From contig JBBPIP010000010.1 in the NCBI GenBank assembly GCA_038040265.1, positions 9,901-73,900 on the forward strand: DNA of 64,000 nucleotides, given 5' to 3'. The notes beneath the pieces are model-generated. The model ran no database searches and was not told the origin of the DNA. It was given only the letters and a program-made list of their open reading frames with translations. Source of the stretch: Chloroflexota bacterium (GTDB lineage: Bacteria > Chloroflexota > Limnocylindria > P2-11E). Of the stretch, positions 3,892 through 51,367 are shown piece after piece. The translations under genes were made by a program, and so were the position numbers. Positions within the stretch are counted from its first letter, which is position 1. Every line of letters starts with the position of its first letter.

Positions 3892-3909
3892 AGTCAGCTA
3901 GCGCTGACT
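3892..3909. promoter_or_regulatory. Inverted repeat AGTCAGC-tagc-GCTGACT overlapping the glycoside-hydrolase stop, upstream of the sugar-SBP promoter region
   Basis: 7-nt perfect arms. Located between two co-directional minus-strand genes, about 115 nt upstream of the SBP start. A TTGACA hexamer lies immediately adjacent on the minus strand. Confidence 0.25.
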
Positions 3910-45217: not shown

Positions 45218-46887
45218 ATCAGACGGCGCCCTCCGCGGGACGAGGAGCCGCAGGAAGCAGCGAGCGCCGCCCCCTCACCGTGCTGTTCGCCGATATCGCC
45301 GGGTCGACCGCGATCGCCGAGCGCATGGACCCCGAGGACTGGACCGCCATCGTGAGCCAGGCCTTCGCGCGAATGAACGCGACCGTGACTCGGTACGACG
45401 GGACGATCGCGCGCCTGATGGGCGACGGCGTGCTCGCGTTCTTCGGCGCGCCCGTGGCCCACGAGGATGATCCGCTGCGCGCGGTGCGCTGCGGGCTCGA
45501 TATGGCGCGTGCGGTCGACGAGCTCAGCGCGGAGCTGAGTGCCAAGGAGCCGATCGATCTCAAAGTACGTGTCGGGATCAACACCGGTCCCGTCGTGGTC
45601 GGTATGGTCGGCACGCAGGCCGCGAGCGAGTACACCGCGATGGGCGACGCGGTGAACGTCGCCGCGCGGATGCAGGCGCTGGCACGGCCGGGGACGGTGC
45701 TCGTGAGCGGCGCCACCCACCGCTTCGTCGTCGCGCTCGTCGAGTCCCTCGATGTTGGCGCGCTCGACCTCAAGGGGAAAGCCAACGCCGTTCAGGCCTA
45801 CGAAGTGACCGGGTTGAAGGAGGGGGCTACGGGGCGCGGCCTCGCTGGCATCCATGCGCCGATGATCGGACGCGACGCGCAGCTACGCCGACTTCGTGAC
45901 GTGTTCGCGATCGCCAGGGCGGGACAGGGCCGATTCGCTTCCATCCTCGGCGAGCCGGGCATCGGGAAGAGCCGGCTCCTCGCCGAGTTGCGCGCGGAGA
46001 TCGGGGGCAGCGATGGTCAGGTGCGGTGGGTCGAAGGCCGTTGCCTTTCGTATGGTCAGACGCTGCCGTATCACCTGGTGCTCGATGTGATTCGGTCGGT
46101 GATCGGTGTGAGCGGATCCGCCGGCGAGCCGGAGGTGCGCGAAGCGCTGGAGAGAGCTCTGCGTGAGCTCGTCGGTGAGGACTGGGCCGAGCCGTACGCG
46201 TATCTGGGGCATCTGCTCTCGCTGAAGCTCGCGCCAGAAATGCAGGCACGCGTCTCGGCCAGCGAGATGGAGGCCGTCAAGCGGTACGTCTCGTCGCTGA
46301 TGCAGATGGTGCGGGCGCTCTCCACCCGCGGCCCGCTGGTACTCGTGTTCGAGGACCTGCACTGGGCAGATGCCGCCTCGGTGGATGCGCTGCTCGCGTT
46401 CATGCCTCTCGCGGCACAGATGCCGGTCCTATCGATCTTGAGCTCGCGCACGGATCGAGACGCCGAGGGCTGGCGTCTTGTTTCGGGCGCGCGCGACCTG
46501 TTCGGTGACGCGCTCACCGAGATACGTCTCGATCCACTCAAGAGCGATGAGACGCGAAGCCTCGTGGCGAGTCTGCTCGAGATCGAATCCCTGCCGCAAA
46601 AGACGCGCGACCTCGTCCTCGCCAAGGCCGAGGGCAATCCGTTCTTCGTCGAGGAGGTCATCCGGATGCTGATCGACCGCGGCGCGATCCAGCGCGAAGG
46701 CGACCGCTGGATCGCCACCGCGAGCGTCACGGGGGTTGAGATACCCGACACCCTTCAAGGGCTTTTGCTCGAGCGGATCGACCGCCTGCCGCAGGAGAGC
46801 AGACGTACGCTACGTGTCGCCTCGGTGATCGGTCGACAGTTCGGTGTGAGCATCCTGGAGCGGCTCCTCGAAGGGAGAACCACATGA
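45214..46887 (+). CDS. Cyclase/AAA+ ATPase N-terminal portion of a second cyclase-AAA-TPR protein (gene split by frameshift)
   Basis: CHD (LTVLFADIAGSTAI, GDAVNVAARM) + P-loop (ILGEPGIGKSRL). Ends ...VIGRQFGVSILERLLEGRTT*, where homologs continue. 4-nt overlap (ATGA) with the next ORF in a different frame. Confidence 0.7.
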   Translation: MNQTAPSAGRGAAGSSERRPLTVLFADIAGSTAIAERMDPEDWTAIVSQAFARMNATVTRYDGTIARLMGDGVLAFFGAPVAHEDDPLRAVRCGLDMARAVDELSAELSAKEPIDLKVRVGINTGPVVVGMVGTQAASEYTAMGDAVNVAARMQALARPGTVLVSGATHRFVVALVESLDVGALDLKGKANAVQAYEVTGLKEGATGRGLAGIHAPMIGRDAQLRRLRDVFAIARAGQGRFASILGEPGIGKSRLLAELRAEIGGSDGQVRWVEGRCLSYGQTLPYHLVLDVIRSVIGVSGSAGEPEVREALERALRELVGEDWAEPYAYLGHLLSLKLAPEMQARVSASEMEAVKRYVSSLMQMVRALSTRGPLVLVFEDLHWADAASVDALLAFMPLAAQMPVLSILSSRTDRDAEGWRLVSGARDLFGDALTEIRLDPLKSDETRSLVASLLEIESLPQKTRDLVLAKAEGNPFFVEEVIRMLIDRGAIQREGDRWIATASVTGVEIPDTLQGLLLERIDRLPQESRRTLRVASVIGRQFGVSILERLLEGRTT

Positions 46888-48362
46888 CCGCGAAAGCCGA
46901 GCTCGGAACTCTCGAAGCGAGCGGCCTCATCCAGATCGCGGCCGTGCAGCCGGAGCTCGAATACCTCTTCCGGCACGCGCTCGTTCAGGATGCCGCGTAC
47001 AGCTCCCTTCTCAAGCAGGACCGCCGCTCGCTCCACAAGCTCGCGGCCGAAACGCTCCTGTCGTTGTACCCGGAACGGCGTCGCGAGCTCGCGGCCGTCA
47101 TCGCCATGCACTTCGAGCAGGCGGGCGAGCCAGGCAGCGCCGCCGAGCATCTGATCGTCGCGGGCGAGCACGCTCTCGAGCGGTTCGCGCAGCGCGAGGC
47201 CGTCGCTTTCTTCGCTCGCTCGGCTGAGCTGCTGCCCGCGGACGACCCGCGGATCGACCTGCGCATGCGCGCGGCGATCGGCTCCGCGAGAGCGGGTTGG
47301 ACGTTCAGCGGGCTGGGCGGTGCCATCGAGCAGCTCGGGCGTGCCATCGCGATCGCTGGCGATCGTGCCGATCGCAGGCTGCTCGCCGACGCCTACTTCT
47401 GGGTGGCGTTCCTGCGGCGGATGACCGGCGAGTCGCCAGACTCCAGTCCGGCACTGAAGCACGCGCTCGAGCAGGCCGAAGCCATCGGCACCGAGCTTGG
47501 GGATCCGGCGGCGCACGCTATTCCCAAGGCGTTTATGGGAGTGGGGGTGATGTTTAACGGCGAGCTGCGTGAAGGTGCCCAGCTCCTTAGCGAGTCACTC
47601 GATGAGCTCGAGGGCAGGACCGATGCGGTCTCGACGGCCATCCTTTCTGGGTTCCTAGCGATCACGTACGCGCGCCTCGGCGAGTTCGCGGAAGCGGAAC
47701 GTGCCCTGAGCCGCGCAGAGCGCTTCGCGGCCGAGGGGGATGAGATCGCGAGGCTGGACACACTCATCACGCGAAGCGCTATTAACCTGGAGCGTGGCGA
47801 TATCGCCGAGGGCTCGGCGCTCGCGCTGCAGTGCGCCGAGACGTCCGAAGCGCTTGGCGCCGTTTCCTGCGCGGTCGCCTCGAACGTCTTCCTTGGACAG
47901 GGCCGGCTCATCCTCGAAGATGCGGTCGGTGCGCGCGCGCCGCTCGAGCGCGGCCTCGAGCTCTCGCTCGTCACGTACATGGCGCCGATGCGGACGCTTG
48001 CGACGGGCATGCTCGGGTCGGTGAGAGCGCGGCTCGGCGACCTACCTGCCGGCGACGCTGGCTGGAACGGCGCCCTCGAGGCGGCCCGCGCCGGCAGCGA
48101 TCGCTTCGGTGAGGCGGTAACGCTCTGGGGTCGTGCGCGAACGTACGTCCGGCAAGGAGCGCCGGACTGGGCGGCTGCTCTCAGCGACATCGACAAAGCG
48201 GTCGCCCTGTTCGACGCGATGGAGGCCCGTCCATCGCTGGCGCGAGCGCTACGTGATCGGGGGCAGGTGCTGCGCGCGATCGGTCGCAACTCCGAAGCGG
48301 ATGAGACGCAGCACCGTGCACTCGAGATCGCAGGTCAGATGGGGTTGAGGGACTTCAGCTGA
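46884..48362 (+). CDS. C-terminal portion (AAA lid / TPR) of the same cyclase-AAA-TPR gene
   Basis: Begins ...ELEYLFRHALVQDAAYSSLLKQDRRSLH, the conserved motif that in intact homologs directly follows the ATPase domain. TPR-like repeats run to the end. Confidence 0.65.
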   Translation: MTAKAELGTLEASGLIQIAAVQPELEYLFRHALVQDAAYSSLLKQDRRSLHKLAAETLLSLYPERRRELAAVIAMHFEQAGEPGSAAEHLIVAGEHALERFAQREAVAFFARSAELLPADDPRIDLRMRAAIGSARAGWTFSGLGGAIEQLGRAIAIAGDRADRRLLADAYFWVAFLRRMTGESPDSSPALKHALEQAEAIGTELGDPAAHAIPKAFMGVGVMFNGELREGAQLLSESLDELEGRTDAVSTAILSGFLAITYARLGEFAEAERALSRAERFAAEGDEIARLDTLITRSAINLERGDIAEGSALALQCAETSEALGAVSCAVASNVFLGQGRLILEDAVGARAPLERGLELSLVTYMAPMRTLATGMLGSVRARLGDLPAGDAGWNGALEAARAGSDRFGEAVTLWGRARTYVRQGAPDWAAALSDIDKAVALFDAMEARPSLARALRDRGQVLRAIGRNSEADETQHRALEIAGQMGLRDFS

Positions 48363-49506
48363 TCTCCGAGGTCATCGTTAGCGGAGCGCTGGCACGCGAC
48401 AGGACCGCAGCCACGATCGCAGCGACGGGCAAGGCGAGCGCCGCGGTCGCGATGAATGGCAGGAGTGGATCCGCCTCGTAGAGGAAGCCGGCGATCGTGC
48501 CTCCCGCTCCAAAACCGAGCGCGAACGCGACCTGGTACGTCGCGTAACCCTGCGCCGCGCGCGCGGGCGGGATGATCCGCTCCACCGCGGAGGCGACCAC
48601 GGGGTTTGCGGCCTGCGTGGCGCCGAGGAGGAGCGCGGCCGCGCCGACCAGAGGTTCCGCGCGTCCGGAGAGCGCCATGAGCACGCTCGCCGCGGTCATC
48701 AGCGCCGCCGCGCCGAGTAGGGCCGGCACCGCGCCGATCGCGTCCGCGAGCCGGCCGGCCGCCACCGCAAGACCCGCCGCGCCGACGGAGACCAGCCCGA
48801 GATAGATGCCGAGCCGATCGAGCGGGATCGCGGCGACCTCGCGCAGATAGACCGGCAGGAACGCGAGCGACACGATCGAAAGCCCCGCCGCGAACGGCGT
48901 GATCGCAAGGAGGACCCAGAACGTCCGCGGCGGCCGAAAGGGGCCGCGCTCGACGTGCGGCGGCACGGCTCGAAGGCCGAAGCTGAGGGCGCCCGAACCA
49001 GCGAGCAGCGCCGCCGCGATCGCGATCGCGGCGCGGAACCCGACCGATGCCGCGATCAGCCCGGCGAACGGCGCGCCGATGATGTTGCCGGCGAAGTAGG
49101 CGCCGAAGACGATCCCGAGCGCGCGGCCGAGGTCCGCGCGCGGCGTCGTGGACGTGACGTAGGCGATGATCAGCGGGACTCCGGCCGTGCCGGACCAGTA
49201 CAGCGCGGAGCCGACGAACGCTCCGTGCCAGTCCGTCAGCGGCACGAACGACGCGACGCCGACGGCGGCGACGAGCGCGGCCGCGATCATCACCGGCTTG
49301 CGGCCGATCCGGTCGGCGAGGTAGCCGGCCGGCAGGAAGCACAGGACCGCGACGAGGTTCCCTGCGCCGAAGACGATTCCGATCTCCTGCGGGCTCGCGC
49401 CGAGGTCCCGCAGGTAGAGGGGCCATACCGCTGACAGAAGCCCGAACCCGGACCCGAAGAGGATCTGCGCTCCGGTGAGGATCCAGATGTCGCGCGAGAG
49501 CTTCAG
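48355..49506 (-). CDS. MFS transporter (12 TM); proposed CTG start
   Basis: The track ORF (GTG at 49293) begins inside MFS motif A (PAGYLADRIGRKPVMIAAA), between TM2 and TM3. The frame stays open upstream, encoding TM1-TM2 (LKLSRDIWILTGAQILFGSGFGLLSAVWPLYL), with no ATG/GTG/TTG. A CTG at 49504-49506 lies 5 nt after GAAGGGA and overlaps the upstream gene's TGA (CTGA). Confidence 0.7.
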   Translation of the reverse strand: MKLSRDIWILTGAQILFGSGFGLLSAVWPLYLRDLGASPQEIGIVFGAGNLVAVLCFLPAGYLADRIGRKPVMIAAALVAAVGVASFVPLTDWHGAFVGSALYWSGTAGVPLIIAYVTSTTPRADLGRALGIVFGAYFAGNIIGAPFAGLIAASVGFRAAIAIAAALLAGSGALSFGLRAVPPHVERGPFRPPRTFWVLLAITPFAAGLSIVSLAFLPVYLREVAAIPLDRLGIYLGLVSVGAAGLAVAAGRLADAIGAVPALLGAAALMTAASVLMALSGRAEPLVGAAALLLGATQAANPVVASAVERIIPPARAAQGYATYQVAFALGFGAGGTIAGFLYEADPLLPFIATAALALPVAAIVAAVLSRASAPLTMTSEIS

Positions 49507-50717
49507 CTGCGTCCCTTCACGACGCCGCGTGCGCGGCGTTCATCGAACTCGCTTCGCGCTTTGCGAAGGACGTCGGGATCGGCGAGGACGTCGATCGCCG
49601 TCATGGCCAGCGCCTTCGCCGCGATGAGCGCGCTCTGATGCGCCTCGGGCTGGACGACGGCCTCGCGGAACGCATTCGAGTGGCCGGGGATCGACTCCTG
49701 TGAGATCGCGATGTACGGGTGGATCGCTGGGAGAACCTGCATGACGTTGCCCATGTCGGTCGAGCCGACGCGCTCGTCGTCGCGGGCCTCGAAGACCTGC
49801 ACCCCCAGCGAGCGCATGTGCTGCGTCCACCGATCGGCGAGCGGCGTGGAGAAGACCATGTTCTCGTACCCCGCGTTCTCGTTGACCGTGACGGTGAGCT
49901 TCGTGCCGGTGGCTTTTGAGGCACCTTCGGCGCACGCGATGAAGCGGCGCAGCACCTCCTGCTGGTAGCGGCGATCGAGCGCGCGGATCGAGAAACGCGC
50001 CGCGGCATAGTCGGGGATCACGTTCGCGGCGCTGCCCCCACTCGTGATGATCCCGTGCACTCGCGCGTCCGGTCGCAGCTGCTGTCGCATGGCATTCACG
50101 TTGTTGAAGAGCTGCAGCACGCCGTCGAGCGCGTTGATCCCGAGATCCGGTTGGGACGCCGCGTGCGCGGACTTTCCCTTGAACTCCACCATCACGCGAT
50201 TCGACGCGAGCGAGTGCCGTCCCGCGAGCGACCGTCCCGAGGTCGGGTGGATCATCATCGCGGCGTCCACGTCGTCGAACCCGCCCTTGCGGATAAGTGC
50301 GACCTTGCCGCCGCCGCCTTCCTCCGCGGGCGTACCGATGGCCGCGAGGTTCCCCGGCAGTTGGTCCATGACCGCGCGCACGCCGACCGCGGCGGCGACG
50401 CCGATCATCGCGATGAGGTTGTGGCCGCATGCGTGGCCGATCTCCGCGAGGGCGTCGTATTCCTGGAGGATCGCGACCGTCGGGCCGGGGGCGTGACCTT
50501 TCGCATCGCCGCGATATGAGGTCTCGATGCCCTTGTATCCGCGCTCGACGGCGAACCCCGCGCCCTCGAGAAACTCGGTGATGCGCAGCGCGGCCTCGCG
50601 CTCCTCGTACGCGAGCTCGGGCTTGGCGTGGATCGCGCGCGAGAGCGCGAAGAGCGCGTCGCGCCGCTCGTCGATGGCCTTGATCGCGTGCTGCCCGAGG
50701 ACCTTCGGGCCGCTCAT
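49503..50717 (-). CDS. M20D-family amidohydrolase (hippurate hydrolase / aminoacylase-like)
   Basis: 404 aa. Metal-binding motifs: IGHACGHNLIA, GTPAEEGGGGK, MIHP. Confidence 0.85.
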   Translation of the reverse strand: MSGPKVLGQHAIKAIDERRDALFALSRAIHAKPELAYEEREAALRITEFLEGAGFAVERGYKGIETSYRGDAKGHAPGPTVAILQEYDALAEIGHACGHNLIAMIGVAAAVGVRAVMDQLPGNLAAIGTPAEEGGGGKVALIRKGGFDDVDAAMMIHPTSGRSLAGRHSLASNRVMVEFKGKSAHAASQPDLGINALDGVLQLFNNVNAMRQQLRPDARVHGIITSGGSAANVIPDYAAARFSIRALDRRYQQEVLRRFIACAEGASKATGTKLTVTVNENAGYENMVFSTPLADRWTQHMRSLGVQVFEARDDERVGSTDMGNVMQVLPAIHPYIAISQESIPGHSNAFREAVVQPEAHQSALIAAKALAMTAIDVLADPDVLRKARSEFDERRARGVVKGRS

Positions 50718-51367
50718 CGGGTCTGGTGTCCCGCGATGAGCGCGAGGATCACGCGGTCGAGCGCGCGATCCGCCTCCTCGAACAGGAGCGCGGCCTGATC
50801 CGATCCGAGCGAGCGCCGTCGTGCGACGTTCGCGATCTCCGACATGAAGCGCGCGCGGAAGAAGAGGAAGACCTGCGTGCCCTCGCCGAGCGAGAGCCCG
50901 TGGCGGCGAGCCTCGACCCCGTACTCGCGGCCGAGCACCTCGGCCTGCGCGATGAGCTGATCGCGCCCGACCGCGCGTGTCGTATCGAGGTGCCCGAGCA
51001 GCAGGTCGCTCATCCGCACGCCGCGCTCGCGGAACCAGCGGAGCGAGTCCTCGTCGAAGCGCGCATACCAGTCCTGCGTCGCGAGGTCGACGCGGACGCG
51101 CTTGAGGAACTCTGCGGAGACGCGATCGGGAGCTTCACCGAGCGCGGAGAGCGACTGACGGCGCGCCTGCCGCGGGCGGGGAAGCATCGCGTCGATCGAG
51201 GCGCGCATGAAACGGCGATGCCCGCCGGGCGTGGTGAAGACCTCGATCTTTCCGGAATCGGCCCAGCGGCGAAGCGTGTCGGGATCCACGCCGAGGATCC
51301 GGCTCGCCTCCCCCAGCGTTAGCCAGTCACCGCGCTCGAGCGTCGTCGCCTTGGAGATACCGCAAAT
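50714..51367 (-). CDS. MerR/excisionase-type HTH transcriptional regulator with C-terminal effector domain; start uncertain
   Basis: The complete HTH (DWLTLGEASRILGVDPDTLRRWADSGKIEVFTTPGGHRRF) begins upstream of the first canonical start (GTG at 51289). The frame is open back to a TAG at 51368-51370 with only ATT/ATC/CTG-type candidate starts. Confidence 0.55.
   Translation of the reverse strand: MCGISKATTLERGDWLTLGEASRILGVDPDTLRRWADSGKIEVFTTPGGHRRFMRASIDAMLPRPRQARRQSLSALGEAPDRVSAEFLKRVRVDLATQDWYARFDEDSLRWFRERGVRMSDLLLGHLDTTRAVGRDQLIAQAEVLGREYGVEARRHGLSLGEGTQVFLFFRARFMSEIANVARRRSLGSDQAALLFEEADRALDRVILALIAGHQTR

Follow-up and report, generated by a model that had tools for sequence, protein, structure and literature searches.

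A conserved CTGA stop/start overlap as the probable start site of a major facilitator superfamily transporter gene in soil Chloroflexota

A 64,000-nucleotide stretch of a Chloroflexota bacterium genome (GenBank assembly GCA_038040265.1, contig JBBPIP010000010.1, positions 9,901 to 73,900; hereafter the window) carries on its minus strand three genes that overlap end to end. The first (50714..51289) encodes a helix-turn-helix (HTH) regulator of the MerR/BldC-like type, recognized through weak matches to Pfam HTH_17/MerR and NCBIfam BldC-like profiles. The second (49503..50717) encodes an M20D-type amidohydrolase of 404 residues; it starts with ATG and ends with TGA (49505-49503). The third encodes a transporter of the major facilitator superfamily (MFS), and the start of this gene is the subject of the present analysis. 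The TGA stop of the HTH gene (50716-50714) overlaps the ATG of the M20D gene as ATGA. The four nucleotides at the M20D-MFS junction are CTGA (49503..49506). The same HTH-M20D-MFS gene order is found in the related loci L001, L081, L082, L083 and L085.

The M20D open reading frame (ORF) ends ...GGA CGC AGC TGA, and the MFS frame is -1 relative to it. The MFS frame is open from a TGA at 49540..49542, which limits any start to position 49539 or downstream, to its stop at 48357-48355. At the junction, cagCTGAag, a CTG of the MFS frame (49506-49504) and the M20D stop have TG in common. A sequence resembling a Shine-Dalgarno (SD) element, GAAGGGA (49512..49518), lies within the conserved V-K-G-R C-terminus of M20D. 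It is separated from CTG by 5 nt, and its AAGGG core (49517-49513) by 6 nt. A sequence-only reading of the window had singled out this CTG as a candidate start from the same elements, each of which is correct. Between the in-frame TGA and CTG, the window contains no ATG, GTG, TTG, further CTG, other NTG or ATN codon in the MFS frame. The first canonical start is a GTG at 49291..49293, which is residue 72 when counted from CTG, encodes the V of GYLADRIGRKPVM at the end of motif A and is the start given by the ORF tool. We re-annotate the MFS coding sequence as 48355..49506 on the minus strand, that is, 383 codons from CTG. No promoter-like or terminator-like site was found between M20D and MFS, and the predicted folding of the junction RNA is no better than that of shuffled sequences (z = -0.41).

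The geometry is common in the window, as the sequence-only reading had stated. Nine gene pairs supported by the GC content at third codon positions have a canonical 4-nt overlap (ATGA in five cases, GTGA in two and TTGA in two); among the 4-nt overlaps, only the M20D-MFS junction lacks a canonical start. No tendency towards non-canonical overlaps across the genome is seen, the other nine in the window all being canonical. A second CTGA occurs at 3893-3896 (minus strand), where the gene ending at 3896 has its stop (gctagcTGAct). We do not consider it a parallel case; an in-frame stop closes the downstream frame, and the start of the next gene, a canonical codon, is 53 nt further on.

The protein read from CTG is predicted to be a complete transporter. 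Pfam MFS_1 (PF07690) matches it with 133.6 bits (cutoff 33.4) over model positions 3-288, and the alignment begins 12 residues after CTG. Position 2 of the NCBIfam model TIGR00900 falls on residue 8. Thus, the frame left open upstream of the first canonical start does encode a genuine MFS N-terminus. The AlphaFold2 model of the 383-residue protein is of good confidence (pLDDT 88.9, pTM 0.87) and shows 12 long helices, with transmembrane helices TM1 and TM2 at residues 5-34 and 39-67. Motif A (G-x-L-A-D-R-x-G-R-K/R) is present as GYLADRIGRKP at residues 59-69, between predicted TM2 and TM3. Search for structural similarities using Foldseek with this model returned NorA (8ttf_A, E 1.8e-10, TM-score 0.74, 381 columns), and VMAT2, MFSD10 and YajR were also matched over about 381 columns. 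A start at GTG 49293, residue 72, would delete TM1 and TM2, as had been argued from the sequence, and would leave 10 helices; the 12-helix topology is obtained only from CTG. Profile, motif A and helix count in the model all indicate a 12-TM, DHA1-like MFS transporter. The upstream gene is identified by its profile matches as an M20D/TIGR01891 amidohydrolase (TIGR01891, 216.1 bits for a cutoff of 153.75; Peptidase_M20, PF01546, and M20_dimer, PF07687, above their cutoffs).

A protein search gave 128 MFS homologs, from soil Chloroflexota of the class Limnocylindria, and 87 loci (L001-L087) were gathered from metagenomes, metagenome-assembled genomes (MAGs) and contigs. About 45 of these loci, with proteins 84-95% identical, form the clade of the window; they represent 42 unique sequences over the region -300 to +360. 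In one of the homologs (P0042), the middle third of the protein is scrambled and rich in Arg and Ser, with normal MFS sequence on either side, which suggests compensating frameshift errors in that assembly.

All orthologous loci of the window clade have CTGA at the junction, as nnC TGA in the M20D frame (42/42 unique sequences). An indel or assembly artifact had been raised as a possible cause of the missing start. None was found, and the same CTGA recurs in contigs of independent origin, from metagenomes and MAGs, about 45 in all. The surrounding codons vary. The last M20D residue is S, N, G or A (AGC, AAC, GGC, GCC), the first two bases of this codon, whose third base is the C of the junction, having changed 2 and 5 times. 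The MFS-frame codon preceding CTG encodes Q, R, G, K or E. An AARGG core is conserved in all 42 unique sequences. In every lineage, including those where the MFS gene begins with GTGA (L078, L080), this core lies within the VKGR codons of M20D, ahead of the junction.

The ratio of nonsynonymous to synonymous substitution rates (dN/dS), estimated over 27 loci by the Nei-Gojobori method, changes abruptly at CTG. Reading the 11 codons upstream of it in the MFS frame gives a dN/dS of 6.1, and reading the same bases in the M20D frame gives 0.064. Downstream, the MFS-frame value is 0.15 for codons +1 to +13, 0.049 for codons +1 to +70 and 0.125 for codons +72 to +200. Substitutions after CTG are of the kind seen in coding sequence, such as K/R exchanges, CTC/CTT/CTG/TTG for Leu, TCG/TCC for Ser, CGC/CGT for Arg and GAC/GAT for Asp. 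Because dN/dS drops from 6.1 to 0.05-0.15 at this point, the MFS frame turns coding at CTG.

The HTH-M20D junction of the same 27 loci served as a control. There, the 4-nt overlap opens with A in 11 loci, with T in another 11 and with G in the remaining 5, which corresponds to 11 parsimony changes, and it never opens with C. All 27 loci have C as the first base of the M20D-MFS overlap, with zero changes. At the control junction, TTGA is as frequent as ATGA, though it needs a last codon ending in T and third positions are about 88% GC.

More distant homologs show what the junction may have looked like before. Homologs with a canonical start (P0030/L078, P0046/L080, P0036 and P0043) begin M/V-x-R-L-P-R-D/E; these homologs begin at the point equivalent to CTG and not at motif A, so that the comparison with orthologs also places the N-terminus of the protein at the junction. 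In P0030/L078, the DNA encodes V-I-R-L-P-R-E (annotated MIRLPRE), and in P0046/L080 it encodes V-S-R-L-P-R-D (annotated MSRLPRD). In both, the start overlaps the stop of the same M20D gene as GTGA, and M20D there ends VKGR*. L078, L080 and L081, all more distant homologs, are the only ones with canonical GTGA at this junction. In an ungapped DNA alignment, the CTGA of L071 occupies the exact place of the GTGA of L078 and L080, the change from CGG TGA to CGC TGA being synonymous in M20D. The junction of the window clade lies 3 nt further downstream than that of L078, L080 and L071, with no net indel. CTGA recurs in three clades and is found outside the window clade in L045 and L075. From these alignments, we conclude that CTGA is derived and that the ancestral junction is a canonical GTGA overlap.

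The gene upstream of MFS is divergent in clade C. That of L075, judged by eye only, is an ArsA/ParA-like P-loop gene and lies on the opposite strand. A 4-codon mini-ORF of L075 (2490-2504, GTG AGA ACG AAC TGA) ends on the NTGA over the CTG start, and one of L081 (2489-2504, ATG CTA CCG GGG TGA) ends in the same manner over the GTG start. These mini-ORFs may be leaders feeding reinitiation, or may be there by chance.

CTG is the best candidate for the first codon because the coding boundary coincides with it, no alternative start is available, GTG is homologous to it in relatives, CTGA occurs in three clades and the control junction behaves differently. The sequence-only proposal that CTG is the real start of the MFS gene is supported by the same observations. 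We consider it probable that translation of MFS starts at CTG 49506-49504 by termination-reinitiation after M20D, at a -4 overlap and probably with the help of the SD-like AAGGG, giving a complete 12-TM transporter. In the mechanism we propose, MFS would be the third gene of an HTH-M20D-MFS operon. Ribosomes that end M20D translation at TGA 49505-49503 would remain on the mRNA, the AAGGG placed 6 nt upstream of CTG probably helping to retain them, and would restart on the overlapping CTG with an initiator tRNA. CTG would then be decoded by formylmethionyl-tRNA, and the restart would depend on termination of M20D. This would yield the full 12-TM transporter in low amounts relative to the M20D enzyme. 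The ancestral GTGA would have been replaced, and the weak CTG retained since. A weak restart codon has been kept while the HTH-M20D junction cycles between ATG, GTG and TTG, and selection for a low transporter-to-enzyme ratio is therefore suggested; the weak codon would be retained because it limits expression of the transporter relative to that of the enzyme.

Several observations weigh against this interpretation. The invariance of the C is weak when taken alone, as the clade also shows no change at 7-9% of all third positions and at 29% of two-fold NNC third positions. We have therefore discarded it as a stand-alone statistical argument, such a share (7-29%) of comparable sites being invariant too. 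In L001, the closest relative of the window, and in L015, a canonical TTG occurs two codons downstream and could be the start used in these loci instead. The spacing between the SD-like element and the start differs among lineages (3, 6 or 9 nt). Sister lineages have CTA or GTA at the overlap, some of them without a near-cognate codon nearby. Codon-anticodon pairing may then count less than position, and "CTG start codon" would be an incomplete description. A CTG codon by itself is common in a genome of 67% GC; it is the comparative pattern at the junction that, on the alignments described above, is not due to chance.

The TTG of L001 (3001-3003) and that of L015 stand at codon +2, where the window has CTC, and the two loci belong to separate sublineages. 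The JGI start call in L001 is this TTG. It may represent a secondary regain of a canonical start.

The sister lineages bring up the alternative that survives best, a restart defined by position. The codon that overlaps or abuts the stop would be used whatever its identity, with the ribosome held by the SD-like element, and CTG would be incidental rather than selected. The M20D-MFS junction reads ATAA in L052 and L061, ATAG in L072 and L073, CTAG in L046, L051, L053, L074, L076 and L085/L086, and GTAG in L057. The 4-nt overlap is thus kept across clades with CTG, ATA, CTA or GTA as the codon and TGA, TAA or TAG as the stop. ATA and ATC are near-cognate start codons, CTA and GTA are not. In L046, L051 and L057, no canonical or near-cognate codon is found from -30 to +12 codons around the junction. 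In L083/L084 (GCA_041643075.1, locus position 1866-1871), M20D and MFS are in the same frame and parted only by TAG. The junction reads GGC CGC TAG ATC GGC ATC ACG CGC GAG, so that ATC is the first MFS codon, and the first canonical start lies 44 codons downstream of it. Tight juxtaposition of stop and first codon is therefore retained in these lineages despite differing sequences. In clade B, the overlap begins with either A or C, the two alternating as they would at an unconstrained third position of M20D. The MFS ORFs of the non-canonical sister lineages are intact and conserved. Over the first 32 codons, L046 and L053 differ, as counted by eye, by 6 synonymous and 6 mostly conservative nonsynonymous substitutions, a dN/dS of roughly 0.4. 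Elsewhere in the family, a spacer is followed by ATG (L082) or TTG (L087), and the spacers of some relatives measure 26-105 nt.

A relaxed choice of the restart codon is, moreover, known at viral TURBS elements (see below). Against this alternative, the first base of the window clade is C in 42 of 42 sequences, with no sign of drift, and the open-access literature searched holds no bacterial precedent. Initiation in E. coli from CUG, AUA, AUC or AUU reaches about 1-2% of the AUG level, and that from most other codons, those that are not near-cognate, just 0.01-1% (Hecht et al., bioRxiv 10.1101/063800). On balance, we regard it as unlikely that CTG is incidental in the window clade. For the Limnocylindria as a whole, the corresponding idea is that restart at a tight overlap needs no start-like codon: the stop and the SD tether would fix the site, and the ancestral GTG would have been exchanged for CTG, ATA, ATC, CTA or GTA in genes that are still translated. 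This broader idea also strikes us as rather unlikely, if worth keeping in view.

Starting at CTG can also be compared with starting at another non-canonical codon close by, namely ATC at +6 (49488-49486), ATC at +8 or ACG at -2. ATC is a near-cognate start in translation table 11, and the codon at +6 is nearly conserved in the clade. Yet it is GTC in L039, ATC +8 is CTC in most loci, and codon -2 varies between ACG, CCG and GCG. Variation in codons +1 to +5 (K/R-L-S-R-D) is mostly synonymous, the canonical homologs have N-termini that align with these codons, and the SD-like element would be at least 24 nt upstream of either ATC. Initiation at one of these three codons is very unlikely.

An M20D-MFS fusion produced by recoding, with a -1 frameshift at the end of M20D, would need no start codon at all. 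The -1 relation of the frames is conserved, the N-terminus of MFS is cytoplasmic, which makes a fusion topologically possible, and the L083 ORFs share one frame with only TAG between them. But no X XXY YYZ slippery heptamer occurs in the 11 codons available or elsewhere in 49539-49503, the last M20D codons are variable and, as seen above, no stable structure is predicted at the junction. Different lineages would also require different recoding events, a -1 shift in some and readthrough in others. Finally, because relatives carry their own GTG, ATG or TTG start, in some cases after the spacers of 26-105 nt, MFS is a separate protein in this family. We judge a fusion highly improbable.

A true start at GTG 49293 giving a truncated 10-TM protein, a decaying pseudogene, or a sequencing or assembly error is hardly credible: GTG 49293 is indeed the first canonical start and public gene callers truncate most members of the family, but constraint in the gene is strongest over codons +1 to +70, every locus has an intact frame, the junction is identical in the independent assemblies, and a start at residue 72 would strip TM1 and TM2 from a confidently predicted 12-TM fold.

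Two further sets of start codons were considered and rejected. In some loci, canonical starts in the MFS frame occur upstream, at -108, -143 and -308 codons. They lie deep in M20D, in its -1 frame, where MFS-frame dN/dS exceeds 1, and in the window, L001, L012, L024 and L053 in-frame stops separate them from the MFS gene. A GTG at codon +14 is the public-annotation start in relatives (V/M-LFGCGF...). It is not conserved, the codon being ATC in the window and L001 and GTC or GTA in others.

The start at CTG, which we prefer, resembles several known systems in part. NTGA overlaps of the -4 type mediate termination-reinitiation coupling in bacteria and archaea (Huber et al. 2019, PMC6728339; PMC10666635; review PMC12548453). 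As in these systems, the M20D and MFS genes are co-directional, belong to one operon, have a stop and a first codon that share two bases, and have an SD-like element within the upstream coding sequence; the geometry is conserved in all orthologs. In the same literature, the NTGA motif is treated as carrying ATG, GTG or TTG, and non-canonical starts come up only as something that might account for rare oddities in annotation (PMC6728339, PMC10666635, PMC12548453). Here, in contrast, N is C, and the restart codon is a non-canonical CTG conserved as such. The MFS family has, in addition, repeatedly swapped a canonical GTGA junction for non-canonical ones.

Translation table 11 includes CTG, ATT, ATC and ATA as rare non-canonical bacterial starts, and the best-known example is the AUU of E. 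coli infC. Like such starts, CTG is near-cognate, differing from AUG at one position, and low expression is expected from it. By analogy, the role of CTG is likely to be the setting of a low expression level. Unlike these starts, CTG is here part of a stop/start overlap and conserved over dozens of environmental genomes. Unlike infC, the MFS gene gives no evidence of autoregulation of the type exerted by initiation factor 3.

In calicivirus and influenza B RNAs, reinitiation is tethered by a termination upstream ribosomal binding site (TURBS), and the restart codon may be non-AUG (PMC5972666). The overlap of stop and restart codon is a shared feature. In TURBS, upstream pairing of mRNA with rRNA holds the ribosome, and the variety of restart codons matches that of the MFS family junctions. 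TURBS elements are eukaryotic and act through the 40S subunit and 18S rRNA, with unrelated components, so the likeness is a mechanistic analogy only and we claim no membership of this class.

Programmed frameshifting at or near stop codons is known from prfB (+1) and dnaX (-1). The junction shares with these genes an SD-like element upstream of the stop and a downstream ORF that lies in another frame and lacks a canonical start. It differs from them in having no slippery sequence, no stimulatory structure and relatives with their own start, and does not fit this class. For conserved CTGA junctions, or for reinitiation in bacteria independent of the start codon, we found no direct precedent in the open-access literature, subscription papers being outside the search. 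Rare CTG starts and -4 coupling are each known. In the present case they are combined, conserved and apparently maintained, within a family-wide loss of canonical starts.

Some features of the surroundings complete the description of the locus. The 3' end of the MFS gene overlaps by 8 nt (48355-48362) a convergent gene of 492 residues (46884..48362, plus strand), as also in L001, where this gene has a faint match to tetratricopeptide repeats. No tRNA gene was found in the 64-kb window. An ATG-initiated shadow ORF of 363 residues (48335-49426, minus strand, another frame) spans most of the MFS gene, and a gene caller could choose it since the MFS frame has no canonical start.

The missing start has visible consequences in databases. 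Among 96 cluster representatives of the MFS family in the protein database (hits P0002-P0099), 14 are called at the true N-terminus and 82 are truncated. The truncated calls start at an internal M or V, which lies inside TM1 in 42 cases, at residues 31-60 in another 30 and further on in the last 10; their starts include MWPLYL, VLFGCGF, MFGAGN and VLPAG. N-terminal truncation is systematic because a canonical start is missing and gene callers require ATG, GTG or TTG. For annotation, the correct MFS coding sequence of the window is the one that begins at CTG, 48355..49506 on the minus strand.

Beyond annotation, the MFS family of the Limnocylindria offers a natural series of variants of one junction: GTGA, CTGA, ATAA, ATAG, CTAG, GTAG, TAG-ATC, and a spacer followed by ATG or TTG. 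These variants could show how strictly termination-reinitiation in bacteria depends on the restart codon, a point that the current reviews consulted do not address. If restart indeed occurs in these bacteria without a start-like codon, it would be a bacterial counterpart of the relaxed choice of restart codon at viral TURBS elements, and gene finders would systematically miss or truncate the genes concerned.

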